Below are positions 5,980 through 15,901 of a stretch of DNA of 32,000 bases, one piece after another (position 1 is the stretch's first letter; the number at the start of each line of letters is the position of its first letter). The stretch is from positions 30,001-62,000 of the forward strand of contig JBHLKY010000002.1 in NCBI GenBank assembly GCA_048886185.1, in the 5' to 3' direction. Source of the DNA: Candidatus Hermodarchaeota archaeon (lineage in GTDB: Archaea > Asgardarchaeota > Heimdallarchaeia > Hodarchaeales > Hodarchaeaceae). The notes under the pieces are model-generated. The model had not been told where the DNA came from. It searched no databases and was given only the letters and a program-made list of their open reading frames with translations. The translations under genes were made by a program, and so were the position numbers.

Positions 5980-7215
5980 TTACTCATGCATTTCTGAACT
6001 GATATTAATTTTATTAATTGCTTCTTGAGTCCTTTTATCGATTCTACTAATAATATTGGTATTAAACTCATCTAGGTCAGTCTTTTCTAGTGATGATTGT
6101 TTAAGATTGGAGAGATCAATCCTAATTTTGTCATCTTCCTCTATTTTGTTATCGACTTTTTTTTCATCTGCGGAATCTTTGCTTCCATCTGTTTTATTCT
6201 CGTAATCTTCTGATTCAATTGTCGTGGGTTTCTTAGCGGAGATTAAAACAGATGGGGTTGATCCTGCAGGCTTCTCATTTAAGAACAACTCTAATTGATT
6301 TTGATTATAATTCTTCAGATGTTTAATATCTTCAGGAGAGAGATCAGGAACTCTAAATTCAGTTTGAGAATCTACTAATAAATCTTCCATGATATTAAAC
6401 TCATTGATCACGTCATCACTTCCCTCAGACAGACCATCCTGAGAAATAGTTCTATTTTGATTTATTGTTTCCAATTCAGAGTTTGAGGGATAATCAATTA
6501 ACTCTTTAATTGACGTTTTTTGATCAAGTTTCTTATGACAAAAATTAATATCTCTTTTATCCCCACCAAAATCTTTTTTAGATATATTTGAGGGAATTGA
6601 GTGAGATGGATGTGATGGTGATATTCTATAAGATGGACTTTGATCCAATTCGTTTTCTTCTTCTCCGTAGAGAGTTATAGGAAGAAGCTGAGTAAGAACC
6701 ATTCCAGGAACTATTTTTTGTACAGCATTTTGAAAATCAAGGCTGTGTTCTCGAATATCATAAAGAAATTGTTCTGTTTGATTATCAGAATATAATCCTT
6801 TGGGATAATTATATTCAGGATAGTCCAATGACAGACTGAAGATTGTTTTACTAGAATCCTCTGAAACACGAAACTGGTGATCTAGTAAATTCTTTAAAAC
6901 TGAGAGTCGGAAGTCTTGAGGCTTAACTTCCACTTGGAAGTCGATTGAAACATTTGTGAGATTTTCTTTTGCTGAATATGTTATCAATGCCTCAGGAAGA
7001 TATTTTGACTGAAATATTTCTCGAGAGGTAGAGATACTAGAGAAATGATAAATTTCTGGCTGAATTTTAATGTCTGTCTTATCTAAAATCAGTCCAAGAA
7101 AATATCCAACACATCCCATAACTAGAACCAAAAAGACACTTGCTTCAATGGTATAGTACAGCAAACATCCTGAAAGAAAGCCAATAACCGATGTTAAAAG
7201 ACTTCGACTAATCAT
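5980..7215 (-). CDS. Hypothetical membrane-anchored protein with long acidic, low-complexity C-terminal region
   Basis: 411 aa ORF; two N-terminal hydrophobic segments; D/E/S/K/N-rich tail; AAGGTGG upstream of the ATG. Confidence 0.7.
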   Translation of the reverse strand: MISRSLLTSVIGFLSGCLLYYTIEASVFLVLVMGCVGYFLGLILDKTDIKIQPEIYHFSSISTSREIFQSKYLPEALITYSAKENLTNVSIDFQVEVKPQDFRLSVLKNLLDHQFRVSEDSSKTIFSLSLDYPEYNYPKGLYSDNQTEQFLYDIREHSLDFQNAVQKIVPGMVLTQLLPITLYGEEENELDQSPSYRISPSHPSHSIPSNISKKDFGGDKRDINFCHKKLDQKTSIKELIDYPSNSELETINQNRTISQDGLSEGSDDVINEFNIMEDLLVDSQTEFRVPDLSPEDIKHLKNYNQNQLELFLNEKPAGSTPSVLISAKKPTTIESEDYENKTDGSKDSADEKKVDNKIEEDDKIRIDLSNLKQSSLEKTDLDEFNTNIISRIDKRTQEAINKINISSEMHE

Positions 7216-7338: not shown

Positions 7339-10101
7339 CTAATGGAGAGTTTGAGAAAATTGATTGTAATCTTCACCCAAGGGGGTTTCAATATTGTCAA
7401 GAATGCAGGCTAAAAGAGATTGTGCCCCAAATTTATCCAGCTTGGTGTTATTATGACTACAGCGAGGTAAGAATGTACATTTAGGGCATCCAATAGGATC
7501 TTTACAATCACATTCCAATATGTCATAAGCACGTTGAAATAACTCTGAAAGATGGTCAAGAAGCATAGCACAGACTCCTGAACCGTTTGCTTGATCAAAT
7601 AGTAATACGTAACCTTGAGGTATTAAAGCTAAACCTCCAATCTCACTGAGTTGCCCTCCTATGAAAGGAAGACTTGCATGAAGAATAAGATGGACCAATG
7701 TATGTAATGATGCAATATATGTACCACAATCAGAACCATCTATATCTTGAGGGAAAGAAGGAGTTCGAAAAAGCAGTCCTTTTGAACGAGAAGAATAATA
7801 GAGAGGATCACGAAGCTTATGAACAGAAGTACCATTTGGTGACTCTAGAGTATAACCAAAAACTGACTGAAGAACCTTAGTTTCAACATATGCAACTTCC
7901 AAGCCAAAAACACGCCTAGTGGAATCTTTCTCTAGAATAACAGGTTTCAAAGATGATAAAGGAAAAGTCTGTCCCCATACGCTCTTAGGCTTAATCAACT
8001 CAGCGACTCCGCGCATACCATTGAAGTAAAAGCTAATTACACGATATCGGGAGCCACCAGCATAATAAAAAGCACCAGGATATAACTCTAGCATAGCTAG
8101 AGGCATAGCTCGTTTTCCAATCTTTCTTCCTCCACGGATTTTAATTTGAATTTCATGGTTCTTACCACGAATCGAAAATTTTCTTGCTTGCTCTGTACCT
8201 TCATGTGTTGGCACTAAAACAGAGTCATCCATTTGATTAAGTGAATTTTGAGAAATGAGATGACTGAAGGTTGAGGCATATTCAGGAAATTCGCTGACAG
8301 TAAGAGGTTGATCGAGTGAAGCACATAAAAGTTGATGTTCGGTGACATAGGGATTATTCGGGTCAAAAAAGATCTCTTCAAGGTCTTGATAGTATCGTTC
8401 AGGATGATGGTAGTAATAATTGGAGATTGGATCTTCAGCATTTAAATGAATGACAGCTAGGGCCTCTTGTCCTTTCCGTCCAGCTCTACCGATTCTCTGC
8501 ATGGCACGATTAACAGCGATGGGAGGTGTTATCACAATTTCAACATCCCCAATATCAATTCCCAATTCAAGAGTCGGGGTAGCAATTAACATATCAAGTA
8601 CGCCTTCCCTGAAATCAGATTCAACTTTCTCACGCATCTTCTTCTCTAACCCAGCACGGTGAATTCCAACTCCTTTGGTAATTCCACCAAGTTTCTGATA
8701 CAGGATCTCAACAGCGCGATGAGAATCCTGAAAAACTAAGGTCTTTCCCACATTCTTAATGCTATTTAACAGGTGAGTCATACTATCCAAAGTTGATGTT
8801 CCACTAAAAGGAGAGATCATTAAAAAATGTAGACGTCCACGTTTCCCATTTTTACACTCGATGACAGTTACAGGACGATTTAATAGATCTTCCACAAATG
8901 TCTGGGCATTCGCAACGGTTGCAGAAGCGCCTATGAACTGAAGATTCTGATTAACTACCCTTTCAAGGCGACGAAGAATGAAATACATATTGGAACCGAA
9001 AGTACCAGAATAAGAGTGGATTTCATCTAAAATTACAATTTTTAATCCTGCTAATAAGTCTTGAAAACGACTTGCATTCTTACCTATTCCGAGATGATAA
9101 TGTAAAATGTCGGGATTGGTAATTAATATCTCAGGGGGATCAGAAAAGATTTTCTTTCGCTGGTAGTGGCTAGTATCACCATCGAAAACTCGTACTGATA
9201 AGTCAAGAATACTAGCTACCTCTTCGATTTTGCGAAGTTGATCCTTTGCTAATGCTTTCATAGGGTAAACAAGAAGTAATTGCACTCCACAATCTTTAAA
9301 ATCACGAATTTTCAGAAGTGATGGAAGAAGAAAAGCTTCAGTCTTCCCATTTCCTGTTGGAGCTGTAATACAGACATCGTGACCCTCTTGGATGGCTAAA
9401 AATGATTCTTCCTGAAACTTAAAGAAATGAGTGATGTCTCGACTTTTTAGATAATCGATGAGATGCTGATCTTTTAATACATCGATCTTTACTCCCTTCT
9501 CACCATGTTGTTGTTCAAACAACCTATAATCTATTATTTGATGCTGGGCATATTGTACTATTCTCTGGATGGTCAATGGAAGCTCTTTGATTGAAATTTT
9601 AAAATGATTTTGAAAATCAACTAGACTCAAAACAGTCTTTGGAGAAGTTGTTTGGATTGTTAAACCACTTTGTAGACCGATTTGCAGATTTGCAGGAATT
9701 TTTCTTAACTTCCCCGAACTAGCTAATCGCAGCTCGGTCGCTTTTTGAAGTTGAGCATTTCCACCAGCTAAGGTGTAGTATTTTTGTAAACAAAATTCAG
9801 CCCTCCTGAAATCATTTAATTGAAAATAGAGAGATGATAATTCTTTCCATGTTTCTCTATGAGAGCTATCTAGTTGCAAAATCCTACCAAATGTTTTTTT
9901 TGTATCTTCAACTTGTTTCAATTTCTTGAATTGCGTAGCAAGCTTTGTAAGAAGATCGATGGGAGGAATCGGTTCATCTAAAGCAGCAATAGCTCTAAAT
10001 TCCCTAAGAATCTCTTCCAAATCACGAAATTCTTGATAATTCTCTAGAGCTGAACGGTACCTTTTCCACAGCTCTGGATTTTTGTTGTCATTAAGAGTCA
10101 T
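7339..10101 (-). CDS. DExH-box SF2 helicase with DUF1998/MZB zinc domain (Hrq1/SftH/MrfA-like) and N-terminal TPR-like extension
   Basis: Walker A APTGNGKT; DEIH; SAT; ATPTLELGIDIG; QRIGRAGR; LYPGAFY; C-terminal CDC...GCPKC...C followed by LDK. Confidence 0.92.
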   Translation of the reverse strand: MTLNDNKNPELWKRYRSALENYQEFRDLEEILREFRAIAALDEPIPPIDLLTKLATQFKKLKQVEDTKKTFGRILQLDSSHRETWKELSSLYFQLNDFRRAEFCLQKYYTLAGGNAQLQKATELRLASSGKLRKIPANLQIGLQSGLTIQTTSPKTVLSLVDFQNHFKISIKELPLTIQRIVQYAQHQIIDYRLFEQQHGEKGVKIDVLKDQHLIDYLKSRDITHFFKFQEESFLAIQEGHDVCITAPTGNGKTEAFLLPSLLKIRDFKDCGVQLLLVYPMKALAKDQLRKIEEVASILDLSVRVFDGDTSHYQRKKIFSDPPEILITNPDILHYHLGIGKNASRFQDLLAGLKIVILDEIHSYSGTFGSNMYFILRRLERVVNQNLQFIGASATVANAQTFVEDLLNRPVTVIECKNGKRGRLHFLMISPFSGTSTLDSMTHLLNSIKNVGKTLVFQDSHRAVEILYQKLGGITKGVGIHRAGLEKKMREKVESDFREGVLDMLIATPTLELGIDIGDVEIVITPPIAVNRAMQRIGRAGRKGQEALAVIHLNAEDPISNYYYHHPERYYQDLEEIFFDPNNPYVTEHQLLCASLDQPLTVSEFPEYASTFSHLISQNSLNQMDDSVLVPTHEGTEQARKFSIRGKNHEIQIKIRGGRKIGKRAMPLAMLELYPGAFYYAGGSRYRVISFYFNGMRGVAELIKPKSVWGQTFPLSSLKPVILEKDSTRRVFGLEVAYVETKVLQSVFGYTLESPNGTSVHKLRDPLYYSSRSKGLLFRTPSFPQDIDGSDCGTYIASLHTLVHLILHASLPFIGGQLSEIGGLALIPQGYVLLFDQANGSGVCAMLLDHLSELFQRAYDILECDCKDPIGCPKCTFLPRCSHNNTKLDKFGAQSLLACILDNIETPLGEDYNQFSQTLH

Positions 10102-10783: not shown

Positions 10784-12046
10784 ATGAAAAAACAGAACAA
10801 TCAAAAAAAGGTTATTATGATAATAATTTACGCATTAGCGTTCGGTTTCATCTTATCACTTCAATCAATTAAGATTAGTACCCAACAAACACCTGAACTT
10901 GTACCAGTTCCCTCGGTAGGGTTGAAAGCGGTTTGGTTAAACAGTGAGGGATATAATGAGACTATTCTTGTGATTAATGAAACTATTACACATTTTACAG
11001 TCGAGATGTATAATAGTAGCATGCTGCTTGACATAACAACTGTAAGCAAATATGTCTGGAAAAATCATTCTTATGAATGGGGAATATACGACTATGGTTG
11101 GCCTTGTTGGATCGATGTAACAAACTTAAGCCTTTTAGATCCAGTCGCACTTGGCCCAGAGACTTTGACAGTTGTTGATAAAGCTAATATTACAATTGGC
11201 CTTGGAAACTTCGAGGTTTGGAAAGTAAACGCTACAGATGGTAGATCGTATTGGTACGAGACTGGTAATGGATTATTAATTGCTTATATGTTTGGATCCA
11301 ATCCAGCAGATTTTCATTATCTGGAAAGCACAAATGCTAATTTTGAGCACGAACCCACCACTACAACAGTATCATCTTCAGAAACCAGTACAATAATAAC
11401 AACAGAAACTTCTTATCCATCAGTAACAAATTCTGTTCCTGAAACCACAACCAGTATTGAAACCACCCCACCATCGACGATTCCCTCGGAAGAGACAACA
11501 GAATATTCAAAGACATCTGAACAAACCGAAACTACCCCCATACCTGAAACTACCACTGTTACAACAGAACCAATAGTTCCAGAGACATCACAACCTCCTA
11601 AATATACAAGCGAAACTCCAACATGCAGGGATATTCTTCCTCCAGAGGTAGAAATAACAGGTATCGAAAATAAAGGGATATACTCAGATATAATCACAAT
11701 AGGAGTAACTATTACTGATGAGAGCCCTATCGTGAAAGTAGAAATTACCATCAACAATGGTGACATTGATGAAACTGATAAAATAAATATAGCGATTGAT
11801 GCGGGAGTATGGAAAGGAGTATACGATCTAGACACAACTGATTTCCCTGATGAGACTTATCTCGTGACAATAATGGTTATTGATGCGTGTAACAATGTGA
11901 AGACAATTCATCTCGATATCACCATTGACAATGGAGACGCTTCTGGAACTGCCCCAAGTATCTCTCCAGGATTTGACCTTATTTCAGTGTTCTGGGCTCT
12001 CGGAATTATTTCGATTGTAATTTGGCGCTGGCAACGAAGAGGATAA
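10784..12046 (+). CDS. Surface glycoprotein: signal peptide, Thr/Ser/Pro-rich linker, Ig-like domain, PGF-CTERM-type anchor
   Basis: Basic-then-hydrophobic N-terminus; PETTT-type repeats; Big-like segment PPEVEITG...LDTTDFPDETYLVTIMVIDACNN; SPGF + TM helix + WRWQRRG tail. Confidence 0.85.
   Translation: MKKQNNQKKVIMIIIYALAFGFILSLQSIKISTQQTPELVPVPSVGLKAVWLNSEGYNETILVINETITHFTVEMYNSSMLLDITTVSKYVWKNHSYEWGIYDYGWPCWIDVTNLSLLDPVALGPETLTVVDKANITIGLGNFEVWKVNATDGRSYWYETGNGLLIAYMFGSNPADFHYLESTNANFEHEPTTTTVSSSETSTIITTETSYPSVTNSVPETTTSIETTPPSTIPSEETTEYSKTSEQTETTPIPETTTVTTEPIVPETSQPPKYTSETPTCRDILPPEVEITGIENKGIYSDIITIGVTITDESPIVKVEITINNGDIDETDKINIAIDAGVWKGVYDLDTTDFPDETYLVTIMVIDACNNVKTIHLDITIDNGDASGTAPSISPGFDLISVFWALGIISIVIWRWQRRG
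11351..11622 (+). repeat. Low-complexity coding repeats (PETTT/ETT; CCTGAAACYAC-like)
   Basis: Recurring CCTGAAACCAC (about 11438), CCTGAAACTAC (about 11543) and CCAGAGACATC (about 11579) within a mucin-like stalk. Confidence 0.6.
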
Positions 12047-12061
12047 ACACAGAAGAGAAAA

Positions 12062-12373
12062 TCAATCAGGATTAGAGGGATTTGCAGAATATCGATGAAA
12101 TCGACAATCCCGACACAAAGGATTATCTTGTTCATACAGCTTGCAATAATACACAGGCTGATTTCGTTTGATTTTTCGAGTGAAATCTAAGCATTCAACA
12201 TCATAACCGGCAAATTCCGCCTCCTTTATATTTCCTAGCTCACCAGAAACAAATTGATCACAGTGGGGAGGGCAGGACTCATTCCACAACTTGAACTGAA
12301 GGCAGAAGTCAACAAAACCATCATTTGAGGCTAATAGAAAGAGGCACTTCTTGAATGAATCATCCAAATGCAC
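12062..12373 (-). CDS. Small Cys-rich putative metal-binding protein (copy A, 8 Cys)
   Basis: 103 aa; GTG start; Cys at 10, 24, 34, 38, 61, 77, 87, 90; paralog of 15620-15901. Confidence 0.75.
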   Translation of the reverse strand: MHLDDSFKKCLFLLASNDGFVDFCLQFKLWNESCPPHCDQFVSGELGNIKEAEFAGYDVECLDFTRKIKRNQPVYYCKLYEQDNPLCRDCRFHRYSANPSNPD

Positions 12374-12659
12374 GAGGCAAATCCGATCCTAAATCATGAT
12401 TATGACTACCAAACTAGTAAAAAGATTAAATGAAAACTGGAAATAATTTTGGTCTTCTCATGTATTGATTATGGATTATAGTATAAAAATACATTATGCA
12501 ATTCCTACTATTATTTAGATTATAAAAGGGGAATTTGGGATATATTATTATCGATTTTTTTCTCTCATATTTCGAATATAAAAGGACTCATCATCTAGAT
12601 AAATTTTCGAATTTTCTTCTAAACTTAATTTAACATTTGATTATATAGGATGGACAGAC

Positions 12660-14093
12660 ATGACAATTACAACGCAAGTAAGTCAAAACAAGAAAACTTT
12701 GGAGTGGGGACATCCACGAGAGTGGCCAAAACGTGATTCACGATCTCCTTCAGAGTGTTTTATATTCGAAGGAGATGATCTGGAGGCCCTCCAGTTACAA
12801 GGATTGCAGGAGAGGTTTTTTGAATTATCATCTAAAATTCCTGCAGTACGTGATTTAATTGAGAGACAGGGGGTCAGTGAAATCACAACTTTGAATGACA
12901 TCCTACCCGTACTATTCACACACACAGTGTACAAGTCCTATCCGCTTTCTTTGATTGAAAAGAAACGCTTTGATCAGCTGACGAAATGGCTAAGCAAGTT
13001 TTCAACCATAGACCTCTCTGAGGTAATACTTGACAAGCCAAAAACGATAGACCAGTGGCTAGACCAATTGGAAGCCCAGACAGAAATGCTAGTAGTTCAC
13101 AGCTCAGGAACTACAGGGAAGCTATCTTTCCTTCCTCGCACACAAATTGACATGGAAAACTATAAAAATGGACTGTACATGGTACTGGAAGGAACAACTG
13201 GCATCAATTTCCATACAGAACGAGTCCCTGTTTTCTTCCCAGGATTCCGTGATGGGCGACAATTAGCTCAACGCGTGATCGGCTATTTTGGGCCAAAAAT
13301 GGCAGGATCTGAAGAAGAATACCACACTGCAATGCCAGGATTTATGAGTGCCGATTTCATGTCGTTGGCTGGACGTGTTCGGGCCGCGAAGGCGAAAGGG
13401 GAGCTCGGAAAATTACAACTGATACGTGCGTTAGTCCACAACAAGGGGGAGCTCATTAAGATTCAGAAGAACCAACCCAAGTATTTAAGAGAGTTTATAG
13501 AGAAACTACTGACAGAGTACGCTGGAAAACGCGTTTTCTTCATGGGTGTCTGGCAAACCATCATCGAAACCGCTTTAAAGGGCCACAAAATGGGATTAAG
13601 TAAAATATTTGCACCTGATTCAGGATTTGCAACAGGTGGAGGGATGAAAGGATATCAACCTCCAGAGGGATGGTACGATATAGTGTGCAACTTCTATGGT
13701 GTGAACGCCATAAAAGACAATTATGGCATGACGGAGATGAACGGGGGAGGTATTCCCTGCTGCAACGAAGGTAAGTATCACATCTTCCCATGGTTCATCC
13801 CTTTCGTGTTAAATCCTAAAACTGGAGACCCTTTCCCTCGTACAGGTATCCAGAGAGGACGCTTCGCGTTCTACGACCTTCTCGCTGAAACTTACTGGGG
13901 AGGCTTCATCACAGGAGATGAAGTGACCATTCATTGGGACAATTGTAAATGTGGCTGGAAAGGGCCATGGTTAGAGAAGGAAATTCAGCGATACAGCAAG
14001 AAACAAGGGGGAGATGATAAGATCTCATGCGCTGGGGTTCAAGCAGCTTACGATGACTTTATTGATTTCCTGAGGGAATGTGAAAATGAATGA
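12660..14093 (+). CDS. luxE: LuxE/PaaK-like acyl-protein synthetase (ANL adenylate-forming superfamily)
   Basis: P-loop HSSGTTGK; YGMTE; GRFAFYDLLA...GGFITGDEV; C..H / CxC motif (IPCCNEGKYH, CKCG); C-terminal SCAG Cys; directly upstream of a LuxC-like gene. Confidence 0.8.
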   Translation: MTITTQVSQNKKTLEWGHPREWPKRDSRSPSECFIFEGDDLEALQLQGLQERFFELSSKIPAVRDLIERQGVSEITTLNDILPVLFTHTVYKSYPLSLIEKKRFDQLTKWLSKFSTIDLSEVILDKPKTIDQWLDQLEAQTEMLVVHSSGTTGKLSFLPRTQIDMENYKNGLYMVLEGTTGINFHTERVPVFFPGFRDGRQLAQRVIGYFGPKMAGSEEEYHTAMPGFMSADFMSLAGRVRAAKAKGELGKLQLIRALVHNKGELIKIQKNQPKYLREFIEKLLTEYAGKRVFFMGVWQTIIETALKGHKMGLSKIFAPDSGFATGGGMKGYQPPEGWYDIVCNFYGVNAIKDNYGMTEMNGGGIPCCNEGKYHIFPWFIPFVLNPKTGDPFPRTGIQRGRFAFYDLLAETYWGGFITGDEVTIHWDNCKCGWKGPWLEKEIQRYSKKQGGDDKISCAGVQAAYDDFIDFLRECENE

Positions 14094-14131
14094 ATCCTTC
14101 TTTTTTCTCATTCTCTTTAGGTGATTGACAT

Positions 14132-15589
14132 ATGCAAACCGTTGAAAATCAGAAAATACTTATTGAACTGACTGAACATGAAATCCCTATCATTACTCGT
14201 GGAAAGATTATTACTGATTATACTGAATCATTTGGAGGACGTCATGGGGCCTCTTTTAATACTCCTGATCCTATGAAATACCTCTCTCACATTCCATTAA
14301 CGAATCCAGAAAAGCTAAAGGATCTTTATGATCTCTGTATTGATGAAATTCTCGGTTTCTTACACGATCTCGGAGAACGTTTGGTTCTTTGTGAGAATGA
14401 ATACCTTCGTGATGCATATAACTTAGCCATGGAAGCATCAGGTTTAACCCATAAAGTACTTCTGACTACATATACTGTATTACCCTTGTTGTTCAATAAA
14501 GAAACTGTTCGAGAAATGTTAGAGCAACGAATAGGGATAAAATACCTTGAAAACTGGGTACCTACCATGATGATGAAGGGTCAGACTGTTTCGATCCGCG
14601 CAATTGGTGCCCGTACAGCACATATCATAGCAGGAAACGTGCCATTGGTCGCTGCGGGAACAATCATCCGTGGTTGCAGTACTCGATGTGACACCATTAT
14701 CAAACTACCTTCCAACGATCCGCTGACCGCATCCGCTCTTGTGCGAACCATGATAGAGATGGAACCCAACCACCCAATAACCAAACATGTCTGTGTTGTT
14801 TACTGGAAAGGTGGGGATACTAAGTTTGAGAGCAATTTTTACAAACCCGTAAACATCGAGAAAATTATTGCTTGGGGTGGATTTGCATCAATCAAGCATA
14901 TTGCGCAGTATTTACAGCCAGGGATAGATCTCATAACGCTTGATCCTAAGCTTAGTATTTCGATTATCGGTTCAGAAGCGTTTTTAGATGAAGAGTCCAT
15001 GCGTATTGTAGCCCAACGAGCAGCCATTGATGTTGGAGCGTTCAACCAAGAGGCTTGCGTTAACAGCAGGGTTATTTTTGTACACTCTGGGACAGATAAT
15101 GTTGGGCTAAACAAAATTAATGAACTCGGAGCTTACCTCTATTATGCGTTAACACACCTTCCAGAACACATCTCCACTCCTGCAAAGGAATTTAACATAG
15201 ATTTAAAGGCACAAATTGATGGTCTCCGTTTGGATGACAACTTTTATCGGATTTATGGTGGAGAAGAAAATGAAGGGGCAGTTATCGTCTCACAAATCGA
15301 TGAACCGGTTGATTTTTCGGATCAACTTTGTGGTCGTGTTGTGAACCTCGTTCCAATAAACGACCTAAGCACAGCTATCCAATCGATGAATGCCTACACT
15401 CAAACTGTTGGAATTTATCCTGAGAGGCTCAAGCGAGTTATCCGTGACGATTTAGTCATGCATGGTGTACAAAGGATTGTCTCTCTTGGTCATGCACCTG
15501 ATGGAAGCTTTTCTACTCCCCAAGATGCGATTGAACCACTTCGTAGAATGGTAAAATGGGTGATGGATGAACAATCAGTGTTCTGTTAA
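14132..15589 (+). CDS. luxC: LuxC-like acyl-CoA/acyl-protein reductase (ALDH fold)
   Basis: HIIAGNVP; IIKLPSNDP; VVYWKGGD; IIAWGG; DPKLSISII; putative catalytic Cys in NQEACVN; TQTVGIYP; GVQRIVSLG; GGTGA ribosome site upstream. Confidence 0.88.
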   Translation: MQTVENQKILIELTEHEIPIITRGKIITDYTESFGGRHGASFNTPDPMKYLSHIPLTNPEKLKDLYDLCIDEILGFLHDLGERLVLCENEYLRDAYNLAMEASGLTHKVLLTTYTVLPLLFNKETVREMLEQRIGIKYLENWVPTMMMKGQTVSIRAIGARTAHIIAGNVPLVAAGTIIRGCSTRCDTIIKLPSNDPLTASALVRTMIEMEPNHPITKHVCVVYWKGGDTKFESNFYKPVNIEKIIAWGGFASIKHIAQYLQPGIDLITLDPKLSISIIGSEAFLDEESMRIVAQRAAIDVGAFNQEACVNSRVIFVHSGTDNVGLNKINELGAYLYYALTHLPEHISTPAKEFNIDLKAQIDGLRLDDNFYRIYGGEENEGAVIVSQIDEPVDFSDQLCGRVVNLVPINDLSTAIQSMNAYTQTVGIYPERLKRVIRDDLVMHGVQRIVSLGHAPDGSFSTPQDAIEPLRRMVKWVMDEQSVFC

Positions 15590-15619
15590 TTCTCTCTATC
15601 CATTAAAGGAGAAAAACAC

Positions 15620-15901
15620 ATGACTGAACTCACTCCTCATGGATGCCAAAATCAGGCTACTGACATACAAACTCATCCTTCGATCTTTTTCTGCTTAGTG
15701 ATGAAAGAGTCTCTATCCGATTGTCCAATTAAATGTCCCTATTTCGTTCAAGGGACTCCCACACTTATGGAACACATCTATAATAGTAATTATGAATTAG
15801 AGTGTCCCTACCTGCACTTAATTGCTAAAATTGATACACAAGATGAACAGTGGTTTGTCTGTGGAAAAACAGCTAAAGACCCAAATCCCCATGAGTGTTG
15901 A
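15620..15901 (+). CDS. Small Cys-rich putative metal-binding protein (copy B, 7 Cys + His)
   Basis: 93 aa; AAGGAG ribosome site; 30 nt after the luxC stop; Cys at 9, 25, 35, 39, 62, 81, 93; paralog of 12062-12373. Confidence 0.75.
   Translation: MTELTPHGCQNQATDIQTHPSIFFCLVMKESLSDCPIKCPYFVQGTPTLMEHIYNSNYELECPYLHLIAKIDTQDEQWFVCGKTAKDPNPHEC

Follow-up and report, generated by a model that had tools for sequence, protein, structure and literature searches.

The 32,000-nucleotide stretch analysed here, referred to below as the window (G000:C2:30001-62000), comes from the genome of a Candidatus Hermodarchaeota archaeon (4.8 Mb, 96% complete, approximately 35% G+C). It contains a gene for a LuxE-like adenylate-forming enzyme, a luxC gene for an acyl-thioester reductase and, directly downstream, a gene for a small cysteine-rich protein that we call B. 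A second small gene of the same family, A, lies on the other side of the pair and is transcribed in the opposite direction. We put at roughly 60% the probability that the luxE-like gene, luxC and B constitute a three-gene operon specific to one genus, in which B is a non-essential accessory to the enzyme pair. The known kind of system to which this belongs is the LuxCE-type reductase operon, and what is new is the addition of a lineage-specific small protein, predicted to be a metalloprotein. A, a paralog belonging to a different clade, stands outside the conserved operon, and its adjacency to luxE is peculiar to this genome.

Reductases of the LuxE/LuxC type are known mainly from bioluminescence, and their numerous non-luminous homologs are unstudied. 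Here the pair is found in an Asgard genus, from the group placed closest to eukaryotes, together with a lineage-specific small protein predicted to bind metal, and the result is a testable three-gene unit. Its value is moderate, the taxonomic range being narrow and the accessory gene dispensable in some species.

Linkage of B to luxC

The original prediction, drawn from the letters of the window, described a luxE-luxC-like pair bracketed by two paralogous cysteine-rich small proteins. The open reading frames (ORFs) of A and B, their coordinates, the gene order with A divergent and luxE-like, luxC and B following one another on the plus strand, the spacer of 30 nucleotides (nt) between luxC and B and the AAGGAG site within it were all borne out (Table 1). 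The paralogy of A and B holds as well, with 16 of 48 identities (33%) in BLASTP (E 5e-5, for a single comparison) and strong scores of both proteins against a common family profile. The bracketing stood in its downstream half only. At 17 of the 20 full-length luxC loci of the genus the gene immediately downstream of luxC belongs to the family (16 of B type and one of a second type, B2). Three further B-type members, more divergent and taken from other public assemblies, were checked, and all three lie downstream of luxE-luxC, with two short ORFs intervening in one of them; the adjacency of A, by contrast, is seen only in the window's genome.

In a maximum-likelihood tree of 53 family copies the 15 B-type rows are monophyletic (support 100/99) on a stem of length 2.0, and every one of these 15 follows luxC. 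The clade has a distinctive N-terminal motif, C-Q-N-Q. The luxC-B spacers are mostly 5-47 nt, or the two genes overlap, depending on the choice of start, and GGAGG-like sites are present in several loci. The outer flanks, in turn, vary among close relatives, with six or more different neighbours seen downstream of luxE-luxC-B and five or more upstream of it. Since the trio stays together while its outer neighbours differ, the bond between B and luxC is stronger than background synteny. In one genome (G052) there is an insertion between luxE and luxC.

The ratio of nonsynonymous to synonymous change (omega) is 0.15-0.26 for B, where synonymous divergence is unsaturated, versus 0.03-0.13 for luxC. 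B is thus less constrained than luxC, and the purifying selection acting on it indicates that it is a real gene. The possibility that B is the precursor of a ribosomally synthesised and post-translationally modified peptide was ruled out by its full-length conservation, its predicted compact fold and the lack of a hypervariable core. A complex prediction for LuxC with B, run with our own alignments, scored 0.00 and weighs neither for nor against binding.

The B2 type, which has lost the second family cysteine, adjoins the full luxC of G068 (L024) and a C-terminal luxC fragment in G059, and these placements point to duplication of a block. The G059 fragment lies at a second locus, L049 (G059:C1:3203576-3215860, approximately 5995-6826), where luxC residues 317-483 with one TAG stand beside the B2-type copy. 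In G066 there are two luxE-luxC-B loci, L053 (G066:C27:308790-328326) and L055 (G066:C28), and one luxE of this genome is split into ORFs of 179 and 307 amino acids (aa), probably by a frameshift.

A number of observations weigh against B as a functional part of this unit. The first six cysteines are invariant among 27 B-type proteins, but ten of these proteins, including B of the window, have lost the seventh, and B of G059 has lost both the seventh and the eighth; by its cysteine pattern, the predicted second metal site is in decay within the sub-clade to which the window's B belongs. Three genomes (G049, G062 and G063) have an intact luxEC locus without B, and in a fourth, G064, B is a pseudogene with three stops beside an intact luxEC. 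Placed on the LuxC tree these cases imply no fewer than two or three independent losses. No family member was found beside bacterial luxC-luxE at the Chloroflexota locus examined. Finally, a single genus supplies all of the linkage evidence, and shared descent therefore inflates the counts. The LuxC proteins of the genomes that lack B differ by a handful of lineage-specific substitutions only, which is uninformative as to compensation. G062 and G063 (loci L036 and L038) have the longest LuxC branch in the genus (0.67), with intact ORFs.

Range and copies of the small-protein family

The survey of the family covered 83 class genomes and 400 phylum genomes. Of the 21 species genomes of one Heimdallarchaeial genus, 19 have it, with 1-10 profile matches each, and outside this genus there is a single marginal match (E 9.5e-4) in one of the 400 phylum genomes. 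Within the class the luxC ortholog is equally narrow in range, occurring in 17 of the 21 genomes of this same genus. The two distributions do not coincide exactly: G062 and G063 have luxEC and lack the whole small-protein family, while in G057, G058, G067 and G069 (completeness 70-93%) there are family members and no luxC was found.

A profile built from the window genome's four intact copies matched 28 clusters in a database at 90% identity, all of them unnamed or 'hypothetical', and, against 1.84 billion representatives, 63 clusters at 50% identity with E at or below 1e-3, 40 of them at or below 1e-10. Public records label the relatives of the studied genes as Heimdallarchaeota or Hodarchaeales, and the representative search gave no eukaryotic relatives. 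Nearly all members are 55-160 aa long. Two long matches, of 828 and 1394 aa, are a leucine-rich repeat protein and an immunoglobulin-type protein and were set aside as spurious. Among side forms, P0032 and P0079 have a C-terminal zinc-ribbon extension of the form CPxC...CPxCG, and P0037 has two tandem family domains.

The window's genome has a single luxC and five family copies at four loci, namely A, B, C5:170013-170333, C3:220467-220748 and a pseudogene on C44. The last (G000:C44:8244-8480) is degraded, with its cysteine positions replaced and an in-frame TAG. Copies with internal stops are present in several relatives too, which indicates that the family turns over quickly. The region immediately upstream of the C5 copy (G000:C5, approximately 170350-170500) consists of N, either masked sequence or an unassembled gap, so that its promoter region cannot be read.

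These counts agree with an alternative raised at the outset, that luxEC had come to lie between members of a family expanded in this host, as far as the expansion goes; B, however, is no random member of the family and comes from a dedicated clade. The other clades have neighbours of their own. The C5-type clade keeps an ABC ATPase and a MarR-type helix-turn-helix protein. The copies of another clade are transcribed divergently from the gene of an unknown 513-aa protein, and those of a third adjoin an unknown 448-aa protein, a 152-aa protein and a GIY-YIG nuclease. In one clade the conserved block (L063, L065, L068, L074-L079, L082 and L084) comprises unknown proteins of 445-494 aa and approximately 150 aa, a GIY-YIG nuclease, a protein of PD-(D/E)XK-like type and one of approximately 1000 aa; this block may be a defence or mobile island. 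The family overall is therefore not a luxEC accessory, although one of its clades, B, is.

Cysteine pattern and predicted structure

The cysteines of the family follow the spacing C-x13-15-C-x9-C-P-x2-C ... C-x15-19-C-x6-9-C-x2-C, which describes two modules of four. In A numbering, C24, C34, C38, C61, C77, C87 and C90 are invariant or nearly so, and the first family cysteine (A10, equivalent to B9) is kept in at least 90% of members. A proline follows the third family cysteine and another precedes the seventh; the invariant or near-invariant columns are all cysteine, leucine or proline. The cysteine spacing is alike in both halves, and aligning the N-terminal half with the C-terminal half by hhalign gave a weak, in-register match (P 0.0038, probability 8.7%) that pairs the second cysteine with the sixth and the third with the seventh.

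AlphaFold2 models of A (mean predicted local distance difference test score, pLDDT, 87.3; predicted template modelling score 0.78) and B (pLDDT 79.8) show two small beta modules linked by a short helix. A and B are acidic, with an isoelectric point (pI) near 5, and the C5-type clade is basic. No consistent match to the family was obtained with Pfam at E up to 10 (63 members), NCBIfam, PHROGs (81 members) or PADLOC (A and B), and the family profile run against PDB sequences gave one chance match, to a nanobody. Foldseek searches of the PDB with both models returned nothing at E of 0.001 or below. The wide search with VIA-align found one chain at Z of 2 or above for B (2y8n_B, Z 2.1) and none for A, and a second look found none; BFVD had no match at E of 0.001 or below, and matches in the ESM Atlas did not exceed a template modelling (TM) score of 0.45. 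Structural matches to tandem WW domains were discarded, as they reflect merely the presence of two small three-stranded sheets. We regard A and B as members of a new and previously undescribed family, in which the fold modelled with confidence for A has no significant counterpart in the PDB.

Beneath these thresholds there are two weak structural leads. The first is to small subunits of glycyl-radical enzymes. Chain 2y8n_B, which by the name of its Atlas cluster we take to be the small iron-sulfur (Fe-S) subunit of 4-hydroxyphenylacetate decarboxylase, superimposes on the N-terminal half of B with a root-mean-square deviation (rmsd) of 1.8 A over 35 residues, which is not significant. Chain 9pzj_B, presumably the small Fe-S subunit of the benzylsuccinate synthase complex, matches A in Foldseek at TM 0.32-0.46, again not significant, and the 4-hydroxyphenylacetate decarboxylase small-subunit cluster appears weakly in two Atlas searches. 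The second lead is from the C-terminal half of A to zinc fingers of the HNH/Ref type (TM 0.34-0.37, rmsd 1.9-2.7 A over 42-49 residues); the best BFVD match of this half is a 'restriction endonuclease' (probability 0.90, E 0.17, not significant). Because both leads are to small metal modules with four cysteines, they support metal binding in a general sense, without pointing to anything more particular.

The LuxC-like and LuxE-like enzymes

The LuxC protein matches PF05893 over profile positions 4-401 of 401 (E 7.5e-48, 163.8 bits against a cut-off of 21). It also matches the NCBIfam equivalog NF052251 (E 2.2e-44), with 151.8 bits, below the cut-off of 750, which excludes it as an equivalog of the bioluminescence enzyme. 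In an alignment with the Photobacterium LuxC chain 7xc6_A (E 2.4e-32) the window's NQEAC is in register with DQQAC of the chain, which we take to contain the catalytic Cys296, a residue named for P. phosphoreum LuxC. The cofactor-region motif HxxAGNVPL is conserved between the two, and the putative catalytic residue of the archaeal protein, Cys309, is invariant among 19 orthologs. In P. phosphoreum LuxC it is Cys296 that acts as the catalytic, acyl-accepting cysteine (PMC9157457).

The LuxE-like protein is more divergent. Its match to Pfam LuxE (PF04443; E 0.012, 14.9 bits) lies under the cut-off of 24.9, and matches to PaaK models are weak and far under theirs. There are approximately 2000 homologs, some named 'LuxE/PaaK family acyltransferase' by NCBI and some with a precomputed PF04443 match, and they include Chloroflexota and Novosphingobium proteins at approximately 45% identity. 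These bacterial homologs indicate that the LuxE-LuxC pair is an acid-to-aldehyde module of wide distribution rather than one invented by archaea. Among 115 homologs the adenylation motifs HS.GTtGKLSF.PR (of the SSGTTGK type) and YGMtE are at least 90% conserved, and four cysteines (Cys368, Cys429, Cys431 and Cys457) are invariant in archaeal and bacterial proteins alike. Cys457 lies within dDkIsCaG, 21 residues before the C-terminus. In LuxE the acyl-carrying Cys364 sits in a flexible C-terminal motif, TRxxKGCxLS (PMC9157457), and we consider the position of Cys457 to be analogous by placement. The cysteine set includes a C-x-C-G-W motif plus two others. That all four are invariant across the 115 homologs suggests that the protein may carry a structural metal site besides its presumed acyl-carrying cysteine.

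The closest known system is the LuxC-LuxE complex of luminous bacteria (PDB 7XC6; PF05893 and PF04443), whose mechanism has been described (PMC9157457, PMC12041015). There, too, an adenylate-forming enzyme and a thioester reductase with the aldehyde dehydrogenase fold are adjacent. The LuxC catalytic cysteine is in register and invariant in the archaeal orthologs, which also retain the AGNVPL region, and the archaeal LuxE-like protein has an invariant cysteine near its C-terminus that may be comparable to LuxE Cys364. The differences are the archaeal host, the lack of luxD, luxAB or any other lux gene nearby, and a LuxE-like protein of 477 aa that falls below the Pfam cut-off and has three extra invariant cysteines, canonical LuxE being much shorter at 373 aa. 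In contrast to the bacterial luxC-luxE locus examined, luxC is followed here by a third, small cysteine-rich gene.

Proposed role of B and alternative explanations

We propose, taking the enzyme chemistry from homology to the Photobacterium LuxCE complex, that the LuxE-like protein would adenylate a carboxylic acid and probably hold the acyl group on its invariant C-terminal Cys457, and that LuxC would receive it on Cys309 and reduce it to the aldehyde. B would be a small acidic protein with two predicted four-cysteine metal-binding modules, recruited from the multi-copy family confined to this genus, after which it diverged to form a clade of its own linked to luxC. We infer that B binds metal and associates with LuxE and LuxC; most likely it would be a presumably co-expressed, non-essential accessory to the enzyme pair, either a partner that stabilises or regulates it in dependence on metal or redox state, or a local regulator. 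A role as a catalytic carrier is not likely. The losses of B, the bacterial locus without a family member, the decay of the second site, the candidate acyl-carrying cysteine of the LuxE-like protein and the features of the NADPH enzyme in LuxC all argue against an obligatory carrier. All of them favour a dispensable accessory or regulatory role, and they leave room for B as a mere passenger.

As a passenger, B would owe its position to inheritance within a young genus, and the function of the family would be unrelated to LuxEC, for instance that of zinc fingers that bind nucleic acids or proteins. We hold this to be rather unlikely, though it draws on several observations: the scattering of the family, with different neighbours for each clade, some of them nucleic-acid enzymes (GIY-YIG, PD-(D/E)XK, RNase H-like by motif, and the DEAD/MZB helicase); the resemblance, weak as it is, of the C-terminal half of A to HNH/Ref-type fingers; the repeated loss of B without loss of luxEC; and the small double-zinc cysteine-rich proteins reported in Asgard viruses (PMC11529989). 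Against it, the trio persists while both outer flanks turn over, and the long-stemmed clade of B with its C-Q-N-Q motif suggests specialisation. Spacers are short, with sites that resemble ribosome-binding sites, and the B2 type, too, is found beside luxC (G068) or a luxC fragment (G059). A pI of about 5, as in A and B, is unusual for nucleic-acid binders, and the alignment has no conserved HNH catalytic histidine or asparagine.

Zinc-finger modules of the HNH/Ref type, with a beta-beta-alpha fold, are a further known kind to which A and B can be compared, and they include the small double-zinc cysteine-rich proteins of Asgard 'Opia' viruses (PMC11529989). Common to both sides are two sets of four cysteines, a length of approximately 100 aa and occurrence in Asgard lineages. 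The A and B genes, however, are chromosomal and occupy conserved syntenic positions, not viral hypervariable regions; they have no PHROG matches and encode acidic proteins. With HNH endonucleases (PF01844) the resemblance is of local fold only, the family having neither the conserved catalytic histidine or asparagine nor a Pfam match.

A bolder form of the accessory reading, and to our minds a quite improbable one, is that the family represents new two-centre metalloproteins, of the Fe-S or zinc kind, which would act in one Heimdallarchaeial lineage as modular adaptors, every clade having a partner of its own. B would then be a genuine third subunit of LuxE-LuxC, conferring a redox or metal response or a link to an electron carrier other than NADPH. 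WhiB-like (Wbl) proteins offer a functional analogy only, no sequence or structural similarity to A or B having been seen. The Wbl proteins of Actinobacteria are small, lineage-restricted, cysteine-rich and present as multiple paralogs tied to different loci; they have four cysteines and a helical fold, and they bind one [4Fe-4S] cluster.

It is very unlikely that B is an essential Fe-S electron-transfer subunit, which would feed or gate the supply of reducing equivalents for LuxC, much as small Fe-S subunits accompany glycyl-radical enzymes. The gamma subunit of 4-hydroxyphenylacetate decarboxylase and the small subunit of benzylsuccinate synthase bind [4Fe-4S] clusters. Like B, these small subunits are cysteine-rich proteins of small beta modules, approximately 60-90 aa long and encoded beside their partner enzyme, and no other named structures came up repeatedly across the fold and feature searches: 2y8n_B is the sole PDB chain at Z of 2 or above for B, the same family appears in two Atlas searches, and 9pzj_B appears in Foldseek. 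The eight-cysteine, two-module pattern of the family, with proline after the third cysteine and before the seventh, and the acidity of B, which it shares with ferredoxins, are also in keeping with such a role. Yet the likeness is weak (Z 2.1, TM 0.29-0.46), far below significance and confined to about half of the protein, the enzyme class is unrelated, and the more confident model, that of A, has no match at Z of 2 or above. The decarboxylase small-subunit profiles (PF18671, 4HPAD_g_N, and PF18524, HPIP_like) gave no match at E up to 10 for the 63 members, and of the features of 2x[4Fe-4S] ferredoxins there is neither a CxxCxxC motif nor a Pfam Fer4 match even at E up to 10. LuxC retains the AGNVPL motif and catalytic cysteine of the NADPH-dependent enzyme, luxEC persists without B in several genomes, and the second site is decaying in the window's B sub-clade.

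Genomic context of A

The A clade of the tree comprises copies from the window's genome (G000), G059, G068, G064 and G066, and it is not sister to the B clade. Its position relative to luxE differs from genome to genome. In the window A is directly adjacent to luxE, with nothing between them; in G059 four genes intervene (PadR, RDD, and proteins of 109 and 654 aa), and in G066 two ORFs (944 and 67 aa). There is no luxE within 6 kb of A in G068 and G064, nor in the 1.6 kb examined upstream of A on the P0024 contig. In G051, in G050 and on the P0109 contig A is absent and the helicase abuts luxE. G066 has two copies of its A-type protein, identical in sequence (C27:255979 and C27:322045).

What A orthologs keep are other neighbours: in G059, G068 and the P0024 contig they adjoin a gene for a protein of approximately 400 aa and the DEAD/MZB helicase. 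The protein of approximately 400 aa (cluster c46 in G059 and G068) has no Pfam match. At the blastp threshold the 420-aa surface protein of the window does not cluster with c46, so that the equivalence of the two is positional only. Since direct adjacency to luxE is seen only in G000, and the conserved neighbours of A are the surface protein and the helicase, A lies outside the operon, and its adjacency to luxE arose by rearrangement in the window's genome.

The four-gene system of the original prediction, in which the reductase would have A and B jointly as its dedicated partners (carriers of electrons or acyl groups, sensors or substrates for acylation), is accordingly largely refuted by comparative context and highly improbable: A and B are indeed paralogous and flank the enzymes in the window, and A-type copies stand divergent from luxE and one to four genes away in G059 and G066, but the direct adjacency is unique, A orthologs occur without a nearby luxE in G068, in G064 and, as far as examined, on the P0024 contig, the helicase abuts luxE without A in three cases, the A clade is not sister to B, and LuxE already has an invariant C-terminal cysteine as a candidate carrier of the acyl group.

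Features of the surrounding region

The coordinates of the genes discussed and of their neighbours are given in Table 1.

Table 1. Genes and sites in and around the luxE-like-luxC-B unit of the window.
Feature	Coordinates	Strand	Product or description	Basis or remarks
DEAD/DEAH helicase with MZB domain	7339-10101	minus	920 aa	TIGR03817, E 2.4e-81
Thr/Pro/Glu-rich surface protein	10784-12046	plus	420 aa; Heimdall-CTERM-like end	weak NF045529 match
A	12062-12373	minus	103 aa, GTG start, 8 Cys	ORF and family profile, E 6e-31
A/luxE-like divergent intergenic region	12374-12659		286 nt, AT-rich	sequence
luxE-like	12660-14093	plus	477 aa; LuxE/PaaK-like adenylate-forming enzyme	
luxC	14132-15589	plus	485 aa; acyl-thioester reductase type, aldehyde dehydrogenase superfamily	stop codon 15587-15589
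Putative ribosome-binding site AAGGAG	15606-15611	plus	8 nt before the ATG of B	within the luxC-B spacer
B	15620-15901	plus	93 aa, ATG start, 7 Cys	ORF and family profile, E 1.7e-23

The DEAD/MZB helicase is the conserved anchor of the region, and in more distant relatives it directly abuts luxE. Against the PADLOC models the 920-aa protein has strong scores for BrxHI (E 2.2e-59), SngC and DruE.

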